Translations under genes and position numbers: made by a program
Source of the DNA: an uncultured Methanosarcinales archaeon
Lineage (GTDB): Archaea > Nanobdellota > Nanobdellia > Woesearchaeales > JACPBV01
Direction: 5' to 3'
Length of the DNA: 64,000 nucleotides
Assembly: GCA_964618315.1 (NCBI GenBank)
Contig: CAZTWQ010000004.1
Coordinates: 15,866 to 79,865, forward strand
The notes under the pieces: model-generated
The model's database searches: none
Told to the model about the DNA's origin: nothing
What the model saw: the letters and a program-made list of their open reading frames with translations, nothing else
Part shown: in pieces, positions 15,747 through 57,091 of the stretch
How positions within the stretch are numbered: the first letter of the stretch is position 1
How the letters are laid out: each line of letters begins with the position of its first letter

Positions 15747-17495
15747 ATGAAATATGTAGACTTGGTTGAAATATATAGGCAGCTTGAAGAGACAACTAAG
15801 AGATTAAATAAGATATATATCATATCAGAATTTCTAAAAAAAACACCTAATGAAGACATTGGGCATATAGTTTTACTATTACAAGGCAAACTTTTTCCTA
15901 ATTGGGATCCCAGGAAGATAGGTGTAGCATCAAGATTAGTTCTAAAAGCAATAAATATATCTACAGGTATTACATCAAAGAAAATAGAAGATGAGTGGCG
16001 CAAGACAGGCGACTTAGGCCTGGTTGCAGAAAACCTGACTAAAAAGAAAAAACAATCAACATTATTCTCACATGATCTATCAGTTAGGAAAGTATTCAAT
16101 AATCTAAGAAAACTCTCAGAACTTGAAGGTCATGGAACAGTAGAAAAAAAGATGCAATTAATTGCAGAACTCTTAACTTCAGCTAATCCACTAGAAGCAA
16201 AATACATAGTAAGATCAATTCTCGAAGATTTAAGAGTTGGAGTTGGAGAGGGATCTTTAAGAGACTCCATTGTATGGGCATTCTTTGGACATGAAATAGG
16301 ATTAAAATACTTATCAGATAACAAGATAGACATAGAAAGCAGAGAAGAATACAACAAATATGTAAACATAGTCCAGCGTTCTTTTGACTTGACAAACGAT
16401 TTCTCCTCAGTTGCAGAAGCAGCTAAACAAGGATTAAAACATCTGGAAGATATGGAAATAGCTATGTTTAGGCCATTAAAAGTTATGCTGGCTCTAAAAG
16501 TTAAAGATGTAAAAGAAGGATTTGAACGATGTGGCGAAAAAGTAGATATAGAATACAAGCTGGATGGATTTAGGATTCAAGCCCATAAAAAAGCAAATAA
16601 GGTAAAATTATTCACACGCAGATTAGAGGAAGTAACTGATCAATTTCCTGAAGTTGTAGACTATGTAAAAAACCATGTAAAAGCAGAAAGCTGCATACTT
16701 GATTCAGAAGCAGCTGGATTTGACCCAAAAACAGGAAAATATCTCCCTTTTCAGAACATCTCTCAGAGGATAAAAAGAAAATATGATATTGAAGAGATGT
16801 CAAAGAAGTTTCCAGTAGAACTAAATGTATTTGATATTCTTTATTATGATGGAAAAGCCCTTATCAAAGAAGATTTCATAAAAAGGCGTGAGATTATAGA
16901 GAAAATAATTCAGCAAAAACAAAAAAAGATTGTTGTAGTTAAAAATTTAATAACTTCAGATGAAAAAGAAGTAGAGAAATTCTATAAAGCAAGTCTGGAT
17001 GCAGGCAATGAAGGAATCATGTTTAAGAAATTAGATTCGCCATATAAACCAGGAGCACGTGTTGGACATATGAATAAGATGAAACCAACAATGGAAACAC
17101 TTGATTTGGTGATAGTTGGAGCAGAATGGGGAACAGGTAAAAGAGCCAACTGGCTAAGTTCATTCACCCTGGCATGCATAGATGAAGATGGAAACTTTTT
17201 AGAGATTGGAAAGATGGGGACGGGAATAAAGGAAAAAGAAGAAGAAGGCATAAGCTTTAATCAACTGACAGAAGAACTAAAACCCCTGATAAAGTCTGAA
17301 AAAGGAAGAGAAGTAACAATCAAGCCAAAAATAGTGATAGAAGTTAGCTACGAAGAGATCCAAAAATCACCAACATATTCAAGTGGCTATGCCTTAAGAT
17401 TCCCAAGACTTAAGAATCTAAGAACAGACCGTGATCCATCAGGAGCATCAACCATTGCTCTGGTTGAAGACTTCTATTATGGTCAAAAATCATAA
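15747..17495 (+). CDS. lig: ATP-dependent DNA ligase (archaeal Lig1 type)
   Basis: 582 aa. Adenylation motif EYKLDGFRIQ, with a DNA-binding domain, adenylation domain and OB layout. Confidence 0.93.
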   Translation: MKYVDLVEIYRQLEETTKRLNKIYIISEFLKKTPNEDIGHIVLLLQGKLFPNWDPRKIGVASRLVLKAINISTGITSKKIEDEWRKTGDLGLVAENLTKKKKQSTLFSHDLSVRKVFNNLRKLSELEGHGTVEKKMQLIAELLTSANPLEAKYIVRSILEDLRVGVGEGSLRDSIVWAFFGHEIGLKYLSDNKIDIESREEYNKYVNIVQRSFDLTNDFSSVAEAAKQGLKHLEDMEIAMFRPLKVMLALKVKDVKEGFERCGEKVDIEYKLDGFRIQAHKKANKVKLFTRRLEEVTDQFPEVVDYVKNHVKAESCILDSEAAGFDPKTGKYLPFQNISQRIKRKYDIEEMSKKFPVELNVFDILYYDGKALIKEDFIKRREIIEKIIQQKQKKIVVVKNLITSDEKEVEKFYKASLDAGNEGIMFKKLDSPYKPGARVGHMNKMKPTMETLDLVIVGAEWGTGKRANWLSSFTLACIDEDGNFLEIGKMGTGIKEKEEEGISFNQLTEELKPLIKSEKGREVTIKPKIVIEVSYEEIQKSPTYSSGYALRFPRLKNLRTDRDPSGASTIALVEDFYYGQKS

Positions 17496-24273: not shown

Positions 24274-24372
24274 TGGGCCCACGGAGATTCGAACTCCGGA
24301 CCTCACGATCTCTATTGACATTATTTATGTCCATTATCAGTCGTGCGCACCACCAGACTATGCTATGGGCCC
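24274..24372 (-). tRNA. tRNA-Ile (anticodon GAT) with ~25-nt intron at the canonical 37/38 position
   Basis: Acceptor GGGCCCA/TGGGCCC. Anticodon arm CACGA-CTGATA[intron]A-TCGTG. T arm CGGAG-TTCGAAT-CTCCG. Confidence 0.9.
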
Positions 24373-24579: not shown

Positions 24580-24682
24580 CGCCTCCACGCAGACTCGAAC
24601 TGCGGACCTTGCGATCACCACAAACAATTTATAAAAAATCGTTGATAACAGTCGCACGCTCTACCTACTAAGCTATGGAGGC
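24580..24682 (-). tRNA. tRNA-Asn (anticodon GTT) with ~30-nt intron at 37/38
   Basis: Acceptor GCCTCCA/TGGAGGC. Anticodon arm TGCGA-CTGTTA[intron]A-TCGCA. T arm CGCAG-TTCGAGT-CTGCG. Confidence 0.9.
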
Positions 24683-31880: not shown

Positions 31881-33632
31881 TTACTCTTTCTTCTTTACAA
31901 CATCCAACTTAATGCTCAATTCCTTAAGCTGCTTATCAGATATCTCAGATGGGCAGTCATCCATAGGACATTCTGCTGCTTTGTTCTTTGGAAATGCAAT
32001 CACTTCTCTAATATCATTTATACCTGCCATCAAAGCAACTTGTCTATCTAAGCCTAGACCCATCCCACCATGTGGTGGTCCGCCATACTTATAAGCTTCA
32101 AGCAAAAATCCGAATTTCATTTTTGCCTCTTCTTCATCAATACCGATAAACTTCATAATCCTTTTCTGAATTTCTGGAATAGTAACACGGATAGATCCAG
32201 AACCAAGCTCAATTCCATTTAGCACAACATCCCATAGATCTCCAATCACTTCTTTAGGTTTTTTCTCAAAATCTTCTATAAACTCAGCCTTTGGCATGCT
32301 AAACATATGATGTTCTGGTTCCCATCTGTCTTCATCTTTGTTCCATGCAAATAACGGAAAGTCATTTACCCAACAAAACTTAAAATCATCATTCTTCACA
32401 AGCTCAAGATCATCTCTAAGCTTTACTCTCAATTTTCCAAGTATCTCATTTGTTGATCTCTCTCCATCAGCTATAAACATAAGTACAGATCCTTTCTTAG
32501 CTCCTGTCTTGGAAAGCAGTTTATCCTGCATTTCTTTGTTAAAGAACTTGACAATATTGCTCTCAAGACCTTTTTCAGTAACTCGCATCCATGCCATCCC
32601 TTTTGCACCATTTGTAGTTGCAAATTCAATATACTTATCAAGCTCTTTTCTGCTCATCTCTTTACTGGGATTTAAACATTTAACTTTCTCAGCTTTTTTG
32701 AAAACCTCAAAATCACAATCTTTAACAATATCAGTAACATCGATTAACTCAAGATTAAATCTTATATCTGGTTTATCCGTACCATATTTATCCATAGCTT
32801 CTTTATAACTAAAGACTGGAAAATCATCAAGTTTAATATCTAATACTTTCTTAAAAATATGCTTATATAATTTCTCGACAAATTCTCTAATGTCGTCGCT
32901 TTTAACAAAACTCATCTCAAAATCAAACTGCATATGCTCTGGCTGTCTGTCAGATCTTAGATCCTCATCACGAAGACATACAGCTGTCTGATAATATTTA
33001 TCAAATCCAGCAACCATCAATATCTGTTTATATAATTGGGGACTTTGAGGTAAAGCATAAAAACTTCCACCCTTGACTCTTGATGGAACAACATAATCTC
33101 TTGCACCTTCTGGTGTTGATTTCACAAGCAAAGGCGTTGTTATCTCCAAAAATCCATTATCATTAAAGAATTCTCTTCCAGCAGAAATTACATCATGTCT
33201 TAACTTCAATCTTTTCTGCATTATAGGCCTTCTTAAATCAAGATATCTGTATTTTAATCTCATATCTTCATTTGCTTCAATCCTGTCATCAACCTCCAAA
33301 GGGGGAGTTTCTGATTTATTTAATATACTCAATGAATTAGCAATAACCTCAATCTCACCAGTTGTAAGTTTAGGATTCTCCATTCCAGGTGCCCTAGGTC
33401 TTACCTTGCCACTAATCTCAATAACATCTTCTCTGCGTAAATGTTCTGCATTTTTATGTGCATCAGAACTATCTTTCGGATCAAACACAATTTGCGTCAA
33501 CCCATACCTATCTCTAAGGTCGATAAATATGATTCCACCATGGTCTCTTCTTGTGTTCACCCAACCACATAAAGTTACTTCTTTCTCATCATTCTTCTTG
33601 GTAAGTTCTCCACAAGTATTTGTTCTTTTCAT
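31881..33632 (-). CDS. aspS: Aspartyl-tRNA synthetase, long bacterial type
   Basis: 583 aa. N-terminal OB (GWVNTRRDHGGIIFIDLRDRYG), class II motifs (RDEDLRSDRQPEH, GGPPHGGMGLGLDR) and a ~130-aa insertion domain between motifs 2 and 3. Confidence 0.93.
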   Translation of the reverse strand: MKRTNTCGELTKKNDEKEVTLCGWVNTRRDHGGIIFIDLRDRYGLTQIVFDPKDSSDAHKNAEHLRREDVIEISGKVRPRAPGMENPKLTTGEIEVIANSLSILNKSETPPLEVDDRIEANEDMRLKYRYLDLRRPIMQKRLKLRHDVISAGREFFNDNGFLEITTPLLVKSTPEGARDYVVPSRVKGGSFYALPQSPQLYKQILMVAGFDKYYQTAVCLRDEDLRSDRQPEHMQFDFEMSFVKSDDIREFVEKLYKHIFKKVLDIKLDDFPVFSYKEAMDKYGTDKPDIRFNLELIDVTDIVKDCDFEVFKKAEKVKCLNPSKEMSRKELDKYIEFATTNGAKGMAWMRVTEKGLESNIVKFFNKEMQDKLLSKTGAKKGSVLMFIADGERSTNEILGKLRVKLRDDLELVKNDDFKFCWVNDFPLFAWNKDEDRWEPEHHMFSMPKAEFIEDFEKKPKEVIGDLWDVVLNGIELGSGSIRVTIPEIQKRIMKFIGIDEEEAKMKFGFLLEAYKYGGPPHGGMGLGLDRQVALMAGINDIREVIAFPKNKAAECPMDDCPSEISDKQLKELSIKLDVVKKKE

Positions 33633-33678
33633 ATGATTATATTGTTTTAATACTATTTATAAAAGTTTTGTATAAGAT

Positions 33679-33895
33679 CGGCTGCGTTGAAAATATAGGT
33701 CGCCATCAATTCGTGAGCTTGATAGATAATCACTTCAAACTGACAAGGGGGAGGTCCCTTACGGGGAACCTCCGAATGAAATGAGCGAGGTACCAGAAAA
33801 TTCAAAGAATTTTCTCAGTAAGTCAGTTATCTATACCAACTTCAAAAAGCGAACCCGATGGCAACCCGAACGTAGTGAGATTTTCAACGCAGCCG
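33679..33895. ncRNA. Highly structured intergenic RNA candidate of unassigned class
   Basis: Nested helices. The 16-bp terminal helix pairs 33679-33694 with 33880-33895. A 10-bp helix pairs 33698-33707 with 33857-33866 (one mismatch). An 8-bp helix pairs 33722-33729 with 33827-33834, and a 5-bp helix pairs 33740-33744 with 33822-33826. Internal hairpins lie at 33750-33773 and 33795-33815. There is no ORF. Confidence 0.5.
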
Positions 33896-33987
33896 TATAA
33901 AATCTCCAAAATACTATTTAAGTTCAATTCAGTTAATATCTAATAATTAAGGTAAATTAATAAATAACAGACAATTACTAAAGATTC

Positions 33988-34695
33988 ATGACAAACGAAC
34001 TACTCTGGATTTTATTATTATTAGTTACATTTCTATTACAAATCCTAGCATATAGGCTATTTGGTAAAACAGGACTATATATATGGATAGCGATGGCAGT
34101 AATCCTTGCAAATATTCAGGTGATGAAAACTATTGGCATATTTGGATTAGTGACTGCAATGGGAAACATACTTTACTCAACAACATTTTTAACAACTGAT
34201 ATAATATCAGAAAATTATGGAAAAAAAGAAGCACAAAAATCAGTCTGGATAGGTTTCTTTATATTAGTCACAACAACAATAGTTATGCAGATTTCTTTAA
34301 AATTTATAGCTCATGAATCAGATACATTAAGTCCAGCATTACAACAAATTTTTGGTCTTCTTCCAAGAATTGCAATCGCATCCTTAATAGCATACCTGAC
34401 TTCCCAATTACATGATGTATGGGCATTCAACTTCTGGAAAAAGCTATACAAGGGAAAATACCTTTGGTTAAGAAACAATCTATCAACAATGACATCCCAA
34501 TTGATAGATAATATATTATTCACATGGATAGCTTTTGTTGGATTATTCGGTCTATTCGGATGGAACCAGGTATTCGGATGGAGCATCATAATCCAGATAT
34601 TCTTAGTTTCTTATGTGATGAAAGTTATTGTTGCAATAGCAGATACTCCTTTTATCTATTGGAGTAGAAATATAAAGAAAAAGAATAGATTATAA
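33988..34695 (+). CDS. yhhQ: YhhQ/COG1738-family queuosine-precursor (preQ0/preQ1) transporter
   Basis: 235-aa multi-pass membrane protein. The N-terminal region, the NILYSTTFLTTDIISENYGKKEA segment and SQLIDNILF resemble the VUT/YhhQ family. Confidence 0.7.
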   Translation: MTNELLWILLLLVTFLLQILAYRLFGKTGLYIWIAMAVILANIQVMKTIGIFGLVTAMGNILYSTTFLTTDIISENYGKKEAQKSVWIGFFILVTTTIVMQISLKFIAHESDTLSPALQQIFGLLPRIAIASLIAYLTSQLHDVWAFNFWKKLYKGKYLWLRNNLSTMTSQLIDNILFTWIAFVGLFGLFGWNQVFGWSIIIQIFLVSYVMKVIVAIADTPFIYWSRNIKKKNRL

Positions 34696-34698
34696 AAT

Positions 34699-35301
34699 CT
34701 AACAAAAAAACATCTCGGGATGTTCACTTCCTGCTCCCCTTTCTTGTTGTGGTCTGCTGACCTTAACTTTTTCCATAAAAGCATTTGCAATCTCTGCCTC
34801 GATTCTGAGTATGTTTCTTGCTTGGTCCAAAGCACCCCTATATCCTTGTTTCTGCCTTATATATTCAGGCAATCTACCTACTGCTTCTATAAAATCTTTT
34901 TCCTCATTAGGTGAATATGAATCTACACCCTTCTTAAATGCAATCCCTTCAAATTGACTCCATGACCTTATATCATCCCCTTTTGCATTGGAAAATGTAT
35001 CATTTGAAACATCTCTTCTGTTCTTAAACTCCAGCCAAGCATCATGCCTCATCTGATGGACAACATTATATCTAAACATCATACCTACAGCGTCTTCTAT
35101 TCCAATTCCTTCTAATATTGTTCCTTCATCTAATATTATATTATATGATTCAGTTCTTTCAAATGCCCTATTTCTTGCTCCATGGAAGTATTTATCTGCA
35201 ACATCACTAGGTAAAGCAGATTCCACAATGCCTTTTGTTATACTTTCAGCTGTTTCAAACTTTTGATAGGTATCTTGGAGTATTGCTCCTATGTCTGTCA
35301 T
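34699..35301 (-). CDS. Hypothetical protein (Arg-rich orphan)
   Basis: 200-aa soluble ORF with no recognisable domain. Confidence 0.5.
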   Translation of the reverse strand: MTDIGAILQDTYQKFETAESITKGIVESALPSDVADKYFHGARNRAFERTESYNIILDEGTILEGIGIEDAVGMMFRYNVVHQMRHDAWLEFKNRRDVSNDTFSNAKGDDIRSWSQFEGIAFKKGVDSYSPNEEKDFIEAVGRLPEYIRQKQGYRGALDQARNILRIEAEIANAFMEKVKVSRPQQERGAGSEHPEMFFC

Positions 35302-35364
35302 TTATTACCACCTTCTTTTAAGAATCAAAGTCTATTTATAAAGCTAATTTTTTAATAGACGAGA

Positions 35365-36570
35365 CTAAGAAAGCCATTCCTTCTTCAACTTATTAAACGT
35401 CCCTTTTTTAATCGATTCACGTATCTTTTCCATCAAACGAAGAATAAAATTCAAATTATGGATTGAAGCCAGCCTAAAATAAGTCAGCTCAGAAGCCTTG
35501 AACAGATGCCTAAGATAAGCACGAGAATGATTCTTGCAAGCATAACAATTACATGTTTTATCTATGGGTTTCTTATCAGATTCAAACCGTTTATTCTCAA
35601 TATTAAACCTGAATTTATTAGCCACATTCCCCCCACCAGATGGAGTTATATAAACATGACCTCTCCTAGCCCACCTTGTAGGTGCAACACAATCAAACAT
35701 GTCTATCCCTCTTGAAACAGCCTCAAACAAATCCTCAACAGCACCAATACCCAGCAAATGTCTAGGCTTAGAATCAGGCAAAAATGGGATTGTCCAATCT
35801 AAGATATTATGCATATCATCTTTTGACTTTCCCAACGAACCCCCAATTCCAAAACCATCAAAATTAAGCTTACCCATAAACTTTGCACTCTTTAGACGAA
35901 GGTCTTTATATTCCCCTCCTTGAACAATTCCAAATAAAGCTTGTTTCTTATCATAATACTTCAAACATTGCAAAGCCCATCTATGTGTCCTATCTAAAGC
36001 AATAGAAGTATATGTTTTTGAAGACAAAGGGGAAGTGCATTCATCAAAAGCAAATATTATATCGCTCCCAAGATTACTTTGAATATCCATAGAAATCTTA
36101 GGTGTAAATCTACGACGTTCACCACTTATAGGGTCCTTAAATGTAACCCCTGTCTCATCAACTTTGGCAAATTTCTTTTCTTTCTCATATGCTTTCTGAT
36201 GTTTTTTATTTGAAAGATCAAGATAATGATTAGCTATCTTTCCAACTTGATGTTCAACAGCATAACCTAAACTAAAAGCCTGAAACCCACCAGAATCAGT
36301 AATAATTGGCTTGTCCCAATTCATAAACTTATGAAGTCCTTTTAATTTCTTAATCAATTTATCTCCCGGACGAAGATGTAAGTGATAAGTATTTGAAAGG
36401 ATAATAGAAGCACCAAGTTCTTGAATATCTTTATTATCCAAAGCACGAATCGTAGCTGTAGTTGCAACTGGAATAAAATACGGTGTTTCAAATGAACCAT
36501 GATTAGTTTCAACAACACCCAACCTAGCTTTAGATTTCTTATCTTTTTTGATTACTTTAAACTTAAACAT
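35365..36570 (-). CDS. tgt: tRNA-guanine transglycosylase, short bacterial (queuine) type
   Basis: 401 aa. Motifs YFIPVATTA, FAFDECT, LFGIVQGG and the Zn motif CNCYACKNHSRAYLRHL...IHNL. No C-terminal C1/C2/PUA domains. Confidence 0.88.
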   Translation of the reverse strand: MFKFKVIKKDKKSKARLGVVETNHGSFETPYFIPVATTATIRALDNKDIQELGASIILSNTYHLHLRPGDKLIKKLKGLHKFMNWDKPIITDSGGFQAFSLGYAVEHQVGKIANHYLDLSNKKHQKAYEKEKKFAKVDETGVTFKDPISGERRRFTPKISMDIQSNLGSDIIFAFDECTSPLSSKTYTSIALDRTHRWALQCLKYYDKKQALFGIVQGGEYKDLRLKSAKFMGKLNFDGFGIGGSLGKSKDDMHNILDWTIPFLPDSKPRHLLGIGAVEDLFEAVSRGIDMFDCVAPTRWARRGHVYITPSGGGNVANKFRFNIENKRFESDKKPIDKTCNCYACKNHSRAYLRHLFKASELTYFRLASIHNLNFILRLMEKIRESIKKGTFNKLKKEWLS

Positions 36571-37265: not shown

Positions 37266-37475
37266 AATTTATTTTTTAAAACTTTTGGGATATTATGGCT
37301 TAGTAGAAAAAGTCCTACTACACTAATTATAACCACCTACTTCGTATGTGAACCTAGTTATTTCTAAAACTTTTGTAATTAAAAAACATATATTTCAGAA
37401 TACATGTGTTATGGTAGATGAGTTACTATTAAAAAATAGAAAGATTTATATATTAACATATTCAAGATTAGTTAT

Positions 37476-56977: not shown

Positions 56978-57091
56978 TGCGTCGGCCGGGATTCGAACCC
57001 GGATAGCCGGCTTGCTTCTAAAAGCGAAGCTTTTTGAAGAGCTTGCTTCTGAAATGGAAGGCCGAAGTCATAGCCATTAGACCACCAACGC
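56978..57091 (-). tRNA. tRNA-Gly (anticodon TCC) with ~42-nt intron at 37/38
   Basis: Acceptor GCGTTGG/CCGACGC. Anticodon arm TCGGC-CTTCCA[intron]A-GCCGG. T arm CCGGG-TTCGAAT-CCCGG. Confidence 0.85.

Follow-up and report, generated by a model that had tools for sequence, protein, structure and literature searches.

An IS903-like miniature inverted-repeat element with a conserved multi-helix fold, probably inserted between aspS and yhhQ of a Woesearchaeales archaeon

The stretch of DNA analysed here (the window; 64,000 nt, positions 15,866 to 79,865 of contig CAZTWQ010000004.1, assembly GCA_964618315.1) belongs to an uncultured archaeon deposited as Methanosarcinales and assigned by GTDB to the Woesearchaeales (Nanobdellota, JACPBV01). 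The spacer between its divergent aspS and yhhQ-like genes contains a region with ~45% G+C at 33679-33895, which a preliminary description, made from the sequence alone, had presented as a multi-helix RNA candidate of unknown class. This region harbours a non-coding element of 215 nt that most likely (probability about 0.9) represents the long variant of a MITE (miniature inverted-repeat transposable element) with ends like those of IS903 (IS5 family). The multi-helix fold proved to be genuine, while a locus-specific RNA gene or transporter leader did not, given ten dispersed copies with transposon hallmarks. Status as a MITE rests on terminal inverted repeats of 15 bp, the absence of a gene, a duplication of 9-10 bp, the ten copies in the own genome and a spread across the order.

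The element, its flanks and its copies

Coordinates of the element, its parts and the adjoining genes are compiled in Table 1. The flanking genes and the 92-nt distance to the transporter given in the preliminary description were confirmed: the aspS product matches PF00152 (1.5e-109), PF01336 and PF02938, with its start codon 47 nt from the left end of the element, and the yhhQ start codon lies 92-93 nt beyond the right end. The reported G+C enrichment was likewise borne out (0.41-0.48 inside versus 0.21-0.31 in the adjacent spacers), and the reported absence of an open reading frame (ORF) is nearly right, the region being overlapped by only two mechanical ORFs, which start with TTG and measure 54 and 50 aa.

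Table 1. Features of the element and of the aspS-yhhQ spacer (positions in the window)
Feature	Position	Strand	Remarks
aspS	31881-33632	-	bacterial-type aspartyl-tRNA synthetase (AspRS), 583 aa; tRNA-synt_2, OB and GAD domains
aspS core promoter (predicted)	33656-33669	-	TATA box TTTATAAA 33656-33663; AAAACT 33664-33669, resembling a B recognition element (BRE)
Left target-site duplication GTATAAGATC	33670-33679	.	9/10 positions match right copy
Whole element, long variant, 215 nt	33680-33894	+ (orientation modelled in R1)	R1 188.5 bits over model positions 1-163
Left terminal inverted repeat GGCTGCGTTGAAAAT	33680-33694	+	exact reverse complement of 33880-33894
Helix 2, 5' strand GGTCGCCATC	33698-33707	+	paired in 98% of cells; both-side changes at 7/9 pairs
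Conserved core	33740-33768	+	nearly invariant across genera
Core closing helix, CTGAC with GTCAG	33740-33744 with 33822-33826	+	
Core purine tract S1, AAGGGGG	33745-33751	+	
Core pyrimidine arm S2, TCCC	33755-33758	+	loop TTAC follows
Core purine arm S3, GGGGAA	33763-33768	+	
Optional 53-nt accessory arm	33769-33821	+	single T at this site in 8 short copies
Hairpin a, CCTC...GAGG	33769-33790	+	encloses C-GA-[AT-GAA-AT]-GA-G at 33773-33785
Hairpin b, 9-bp stem AGAAAATTC-AAA-GAATTTTCT	33795-33815	+	
3' junction mini-hairpin C-GA-[AC-GTA-GT]-GA-G	33867-33879	+	inner 2-bp stem covaries
Right terminal inverted repeat	33880-33894	-	reads ATTTTCAACGCAGCC on + strand
Right target-site duplication GTATAAAATC	33895-33904	.	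9/10 positions match left copy
yhhQ TATA-like box AAATTAATAAATA	~-34 to -22 from yhhQ ATG		between element and gene
yhhQ-like Vut_1 transporter gene	33988-34695	+	Pfam PF02592 at 1.1e-53

The metagenome-assembled genome (MAG) to which the window belongs (1.48 Mb, 68 contigs, 87% complete) was searched for further copies and contains ten on 6 contigs: 2 long ones of 215 nt and 8 short ones of 163 nt, which lack positions 33769-33821. The second long copy (C16:10714-10928) is 95% identical to that of the aspS-yhhQ spacer, identities among copies of one genome amount to 95-99%, and all ten own copies are intergenic. Each carries the terminal inverted repeats GGCTGCGTTGAAAAT / ATTTTCAACGCAGCC, in three copies as the variant GGCTTAGTAGAAAAT with both ends altered together. 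Flanking duplications are present at all ten, among them the perfect examples GGATTTACAAA, AGTTTATCC and CTTTTTCTC; the duplication measures 9 bp in most members of the family, and among 109 copies with flanks, 27 display a perfect 9-bp duplication and most others one of 8-11 bp with 0-1 mismatch. These 9-bp duplications, together with the inverted termini, speak against a repeat mobilised by HUH enzymes (REP/RAYT, or PATEs derived from IS200/IS605). A coding reading of the short form (GGAGGT, 13 nt, and an ATG read through the right end) was also rejected, since ATG and frame are unconserved in other genera; at the position of this ATG the long copy reads ATGAAATGA. The own genome contains, in addition, a solo right end of the family without partner end (GGCTTAGTAGAAAATCTCC, C11:20188-20202), which was dismissed as the end of a full-length insertion sequence, there being no transposase nearby.

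Outside the own genome, the family was traced with a covariance model (R1) built from an alignment of the ten own-genome copies (A1). R1 had matches in 12 of 14 genomes assigned to the GTDB family of the own genome, the copy number of one genome reaching at least 53, and in 44 of 201 genomes taken from across the order (Woesearchaeota-type DPANN archaea); in a phylum-wide sample of 251 genomes, all 35 positive ones came from this same order. A degenerate 24-nt pattern of the core found at least 118 exact matches in genome_contigs, all those listed being archaeal MAGs. Of the 80 listed records, ~45 bear the title Woesearchaeota, Nanoarchaeota or Nanoarchaeia; all others are entered as 'uncultured Methanosarcinales archaeon'. 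Nearly all genome matches of the pattern fall within a full-length element of ~163 nt, and 2.9 million viral contigs yielded 0 matches.

Composites were encountered in the relatives G004 and G013 (L070, L072, L069, L040, L039, L050), where a structured MITE is nested in a tiny outer element. The inner MITE keeps its own 9-bp duplication (e.g., CTCAGTCGA/CTTAGTCGA), the outer element, whose ends are GTATGTATTAAGC, is likewise flanked by its own duplication (8-9 bp), and the composite itself has multiplied.

Conserved fold and core

The helices that had been proposed for 33679-33895, i.e., a 16-bp terminal helix, one of ~10 bp, inner helices and two internal hairpins, were all recovered in this copy, as was the GUAA loop that appears when one hairpin is read on the minus strand. 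The 16-bp terminal helix is composed of the 15-bp inverted repeat (33680-33694 / 33880-33894) and a chance C-G pair (33679/33895). In helix 2, the 5' strand GGTCGCCATC (33698-33707) pairs with GATGGCAACC (33857-33866); the plus strand has one C.A mismatch here. Predicted folding energies amount to -75.4 kcal/mol for the plus strand (shuffles -47.9 +/- 4.3; z -6.45) and -86.5 kcal/mol for the minus strand (shuffles -52.3 +/- 4.5; z -7.67), and 0 of 200 shuffles of either strand fold as well as the native sequence. The minus strand of this copy folds better than the plus strand because the C.A mismatch of the latter reads G.U on the former.

A search of Rfam, as envisaged in the preliminary description, matched no relevant family: at gathering thresholds over the whole window, none of its 4227 families, including RNase P, the signal recognition particle (SRP) RNA, and preQ1 and other riboswitches, was matched by this region. 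At E<=10 over 33550-34050, the sole match was to the snoRNA Afu_264 (12.5 bits versus a gathering score of 40); the identity as a C/D snoRNA suggested by this minus-strand match is regarded as chance (E = 9.7). The supposed misfit to archaeal housekeeping RNAs is thereby upheld, the RNase P, SRP, and C/D or H/ACA sRNA models of Rfam all being unmatched.

A lack of conserved pairing in relatives, which the preliminary description regarded as speaking against its candidate, is not what the relatives display, because their homologues keep the pairings via compensatory changes. In an alignment of 83 copies from the same family (A2), 92.2% of the cells form standard pairs, compared to 30-43% when the 3' partners are slid by 1-3 columns, and both-side changes occur at 40 of 49 pairs (695 cells). 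A second alignment (A3), comprising 80 copies from many MAGs selected solely by the core pattern, reaches 92.5% (35-45% when slid) with both-side changes at 42 of 49 pairs (897 cells); 0 of 500 shuffles reach the observed values in either alignment, but both were fitted to the model and their copies are related by descent, so that the counts overstate independent events. The consensus consists, in this order, of the terminal helix, a junction with 3 nt on one side and 13 nt on the other, two arm helices and an apical core of the form GAC-AAGGGGG-(3-4 nt)-YCCC-(3-5 nt)-GGGGAA-N-GUC.

The 13-nt side of the junction bears a mini-hairpin of the pattern C-GA-[NN-GNA-NN]-GA-G, which 86 of 159 copies have on the plus strand and 1 of 159 on the opposite one. 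Covariation is seen in its inner stem, the pair counts being GC 48, AU 19 and CG 13, and some subfamilies contain Watson-Crick pairs in place of the tandem G.A (CTAGCGTAGCTAG, CATGCGAAGCATG). With its consensus GC-GNA-GC between tandem G.A, the junction hairpin resembles d(GCGNAGC) mini-hairpin DNA. The GCGNAGC DNA mini-hairpin was described as 'extraordinarily stable' with a melting temperature (Tm) of 76.5 C, the RNA counterpart r(GCGAAAGC) having a Tm of 39 C, and occurrences of the DNA motif are known from single-strand priming sites (PMC13037366).

Within the apical core, the pairing of S2 with S3 covaries (UCCC/GGGA, CCCC/GGGG, CUCC/GGAG, UCUC/GAGA), and S1 mirrors S3 (AAGGGG/GGGGAA, AGGGGG/GGGGGA, AAAGGG/GGGAAA, AAGAGG/GGAGAA, GAGGGG/GGGGAG). 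The mirror relation was assessed with a sample not chosen by core sequence, namely A2 and one copy from each of 40 further genomes. Here, S1 is a mirror copy of S3 in 61 of 64 informative copies and the direct copy needed by an S1:S2 hairpin in 34 of 64; among core types that discriminate between the two, the mirror copy is found in 16/16 and the direct copy in 2/16. The Watson-Crick S1:S2 hairpin predicted by RNAalifold is less likely in view of the latter figure. Since S1 and S3 stand in a mirror relation, they are not a product of inverted-repeat homogenisation.

A joint change of S1 and S3 from G to A is associated with a change of the paired S2 base from C to U, i.e., G.G-C to A.A-U, at three positions. 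Read on the other strand, the same exchange is C+.G-C to U.A-U, a base-triple pattern, and this triple-type covariation is compatible with either strand. Homopurine mirror repeats are a classic signature of intramolecular DNA triplexes, and the core resembles such H-DNA-type motifs in that a homopurine mirror repeat surrounds a pyrimidine strand. Formation of a triple helix by the core is a supported hypothesis that relates to few independent events. Both d(GCGNAGC) and H-DNA-type triplexes are structural motifs rather than element families, and their formation here is suggested by sequence patterns only.

The optional 53-nt arm is sited between GGGGAA and the closing GTCAG. Elements of other genera have homologous arms (85-97% identity) at the same structural site, with variable loops and in some cases in tandem, and homologues of hairpin b display compensatory changes (AGTAAATTC/GAATTTACT). 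Other copies contain insertions of 35-71 nt at a second site, between S1 and S2. The idea that a nested transposon gave rise to the 53-nt arm was rejected, as the arm borders (GGGGAA|CCTCC...CAGTAA|GTCAG) are without inverted repeat or duplication and several subfamilies have the arm at the same site. Optional arms at fixed sites are a typical trait of structured nucleic acids. A longer element of a Nanoarchaeia MAG (L131:5480-5840, DATDVW010000039.1) also contains the same 37-nt core hairpin; this element is built from several CAGAAA...TTTCTG hairpin modules resembling the accessory arm at 33769-33821.

IS903-like ends, candidate partners and landing sites

IS903B is characterised by the inverted repeat GGCTTTGTTGAATAAATC and a 9-bp target duplication (PMC10569121). 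The end of the studied element agrees with this repeat at 13 of 18 positions, and that of the family member L156 is exactly GGCTTTGTTGAA. Two insertion sequences in relatives are candidate mobilisers of MITE subfamilies, as judged from their ends. The first (L030:1139-2038, in G007, which belongs to another genus of the same family) has a length of 900 bp, ends GGGTGCGTTCAAAA that are identical at 14/15 positions to those of one MITE subfamily, a perfect 9-bp duplication (ATACAAACC) and a transposase of 277 aa matching NF033579 (IS5 family) at 138 bits. The second (L033:1081-2099, in G026) is an IS5-family element of 1019 bp with ends GGCTAATATGAAACCCTCAT and a perfect 9-bp duplication (AAATAGAAG); the first 12 nt of its ends (GGCTAATATGAA) equal the ends of the MITE subfamily L110, L165 and L168 (12/12). 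The transposase of the relatives is ~29% identical to haloarchaeal IS5-family proteins and distant from characterised ones. The element is filed as a MITE because its ends resemble those of IS903 and because relatives hold IS5-family elements with near-identical ends.

Common to the studied element and to IS903/IS903B and MITEs derived from such insertion sequences are ends beginning GGCT..GTTGAA, the 9-bp duplication, the short, non-coding nature and the many copies; full-length IS5-family elements with this type of ends and 9-bp duplications exist in relatives. It differs in its DPANN archaeal host, in candidate partner elements of only ~900-1020 bp and in its insertion at a fixed offset from archaeal TATA/BRE promoters. 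A further difference is the interior, a conserved covarying fold that is not derived from the ends of the partner insertion sequence.

A second MITE family of 142 nt is represented in the own genome by 5 full copies (C1:45067-45208, C25:4270-4411, C35:7989-8130, C8:35008-35148, C9:18025-18166). Its 19-bp ends (GGCTTAGTAGAAAAAGTCC / GGCTTAGTAGAAAA) are of the same type as those of the studied element and its 9-bp duplications are perfect or near-perfect, while the interior is unrelated and without conserved core. Since the two families share the type of ends and not the interior, the mobilising enzyme needs the ends, not the interior. The window itself contains a truncated copy of the 142-nt family (~69 nt, 37297-37365) with the left end GGCTTAGTAGAAAAAGTCC only; an 11-bp direct repeat (TAAAACTTTTG) is located 9 nt before this copy (37277-37287) and directly after it (37366-37376).

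Several results weigh against the interpretation as a MITE, or against its sufficiency. Neither an IS5-family transposase (PF01609) nor a full-length partner was found in the own MAG (87% complete, 68 contigs). An empty site was not found for this copy or for the perfect-duplication copy C8:16111 by exact patterns and contigs encoding identical proteins, and the two corresponding joined-flank patterns had 0 matches in metagenome contigs; with the search limited in this way, the absent empty allele is weak evidence. Furthermore, across genera the interior shows stronger conservation than do positions 5-10 of the ends, and 'just a MITE' is insufficient as a description because the interior is more conserved than would be the case for a passive MITE.

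Contigs from other samples that encode the identical AspRS or YhhQ either share the 355-bp spacer or terminate within the element. The insertion would therefore be old and fixed, because the duplication carries a mismatch and the element is present in every sampled contig of the population. An independent assembly of the same population (Logan contig SRR7617950_39895, L106:1-30) ends inside the right arm of the element, i.e., the repeat breaks short-read assemblies.

With respect to the landing site, the left flank reads on the minus strand element, GATCTTATAC, AAAACT, TTTATAAA, ... ATG, such that the duplicated target is located directly upstream of the predicted BRE/TATA. The TATA centre is ~27 nt from the aspS ATG at 33632, and the BRE/TATA spacing to this ATG is that expected for a predicted leaderless mRNA. 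Of 105 copies, 36 have a TATA-like consensus (TtTAaAAAtTTT) outside the left end and 18 outside the right end, in each case at -23 to -12 relative to that end. Element ends 44-48 nt from the start codon were counted for 17 of 53 left-facing versus 4 of 54 right-facing genes (naive ORF calls). As judged from these predicted promoters and ORFs, the family inserts, or survives, at the upstream promoter edge with a two-to-one orientation bias. We know of no archaeal transposon described as targeting promoter edges.

An IS5-family DDE transposase is envisaged to have mobilised the MITE in trans, binding the GGCT..GTTGAAAA ends and making a 9-bp staggered cut. Insertion into the spacer between the divergent aspS and yhhQ would have placed the MITE ~10 bp upstream of the BRE/TATA belonging to the presumed leaderless aspS promoter, and this promoter edge may represent the preferred target geometry of the family.

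The neighbouring genes aspS and yhhQ belong to a group of bacterial-type genes in this archaeon (window 31881-33632 and 33988-36570), comprising the AspRS with GAD domain, a short tRNA-guanine transglycosylase (TGT) of 401 aa (PF01702) and YhhQ/Vut_1; TGT and YhhQ/Vut_1 suggest a bacterial-style queuosine salvage. Elsewhere in the window, Rfam tRNA models matched stretches of 99-114 nt (24274-24372, 24580-24682, 56978-57091), for which ARAGORN in default mode gave none. These three matches probably represent intron-containing archaeal tRNA genes.

Possible roles of the fold

The multi-helix fold represents the conserved architecture of the family, composed of the terminal helix, two arm helices, the 3' GNA mini-hairpin and the apical mirror-repeat core, and its pairing is probably kept by selection on a single-stranded form, be it RNA or DNA.

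It is tentatively conceivable that the MITE is, in addition, a functional structured RNA transcribed in the plus orientation, a proposal compatible with its status as a MITE. Transcription could start divergently from the symmetric TATA ~20 bp from the left end, a few nt inside the element, and terminate at the T-run that precedes the right end; the fold could then serve RNA stability, protein binding, or the regulation of the transposase or neighbour genes. Such a role is consistent with the covariation in A2 and A3, with conserved unpaired motifs and optional hairpin arms at two fixed sites, as in structured RNAs, and with the restriction of the tandem-GA/GNA motif to the plus strand. It would also agree with the solid helices, which contain 110 G.U versus 47 A.C in plus orientation, and with the left end facing a promoter twice as often as the right one. 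Against it stand the lack of any matching Rfam family, the better folding of the minus strand in this copy, the common descent of the copies, by which independent events are overstated, and the model-fitted nature of both alignments. Moreover, GNA triloop mini-hairpins are far more stable as DNA than as RNA (PMC13037366).

In a rather unlikely alternative, the fold would act as single-stranded DNA, extruded or folded during replication or transposition, where mini-hairpins and purine mirror repeat could aid copying, recognition by host or transposon proteins, or nuclease resistance. The junction consensus C-GA-[GC-GNA-GC]-GA-G corresponds to the stable DNA mini-hairpin (PMC13037366), and the homopurine mirror relation described above would fit as well. 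However, the mini-hairpin stems of this copy are A-T rich (ACGTAGT, ATGAAAT), and the excess of G.U over A.C is more natural for RNA, even though G.T is also tolerated in DNA. The 9-bp duplication and IS903-like ends in turn are indicative of a double-strand DDE mechanism, cut-and-paste or replicative, for which no folded strand is needed.

A fold without function appears improbable. It would be the fold-back of an insertion-sequence end, with arms homogenised by intrastrand template switching or repair and spread horizontally in recent times. Many MITEs are indeed long imperfect palindromes, copies of one genome differ little (95-99% identity), and the distribution in the order is patchy (44 of 201 genomes). 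Yet the element is no simple palindrome; conservation across families of the order extends to asymmetric features, namely the junction with its 3-nt and 13-nt sides, the mini-hairpin on one side only and the purine-pyrimidine-purine core; S1 and S3 form a mirror rather than an inverted repeat, which arm homogenisation cannot yield; and copies of different genera are dissimilar in sequence, many positions showing all four pair types.

Genes of bacterial YhhQ-type queuosine-precursor transporters are often under the control of preQ1 riboswitches; yet a locus-specific cis-regulatory RNA for yhhQ (riboswitch or leader) or an unrecognised housekeeping RNA gene, to which the strong fold 93 nt upstream of the transporter gene might point, is effectively refuted by copy number and target duplications, considering that the element adjoins unrelated genes at nine other sites of the own genome and hundreds elsewhere, that inverted termini and target duplication bracket it, that no preQ1 or other riboswitch, RNase P or SRP matched even at E<=10, and that it is not required as a leader because a TATA-like box separates it from the yhhQ ATG.

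Small size, dispersal, intergenic location and hairpin formation relate the studied MITE to bacterial repeats such as REP/BIME, ERIC, Correia/NEMIS, BOX and RUP, some of which affect neighbour genes at the RNA level. Differing from it, REPs are moved by HUH (RAYT) enzymes without target duplication, and Correia elements duplicate TA. To our knowledge, none of these repeats has a mirror-repeat, triplex-like core or optional arms, and none is archaeal. No paper on MITEs in Woesearchaeota was found in the literature searched.

Compensatory changes across many genera, three-way covariation in the core and a fixed promoter offset with orientation bias set the family apart from ordinary MITEs. One may speculate, although the combination as a whole is doubtful, that it is a mobile carrier of a selected folded module, which lands at promoter edges, is transcribed divergently by virtue of a symmetric TATA and yields a discrete RNA of ~150-200 nt. 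The apex of this RNA would be a small triple helix, with a purine/pyrimidine tract in the groove of a 4-5-bp hairpin, and its arms would be extendable.

For annotation, the interpretation as a MITE means that such 'structured RNA candidates' in Woesearchaeota are to be labelled as MITE copies rather than RNA genes or riboswitches; the element also explains assembly breaks, since some contigs end inside it. A transcribed fold would represent a new RNA borne by a transposon, and one acting as DNA would show mini-hairpin and triplex motifs in natural use. The mobile carrier, if real, would amount to a new class of structured RNA that DPANN archaea carry on transposons and that IS903-like transposases, their end specificities changing, have distributed through one order.

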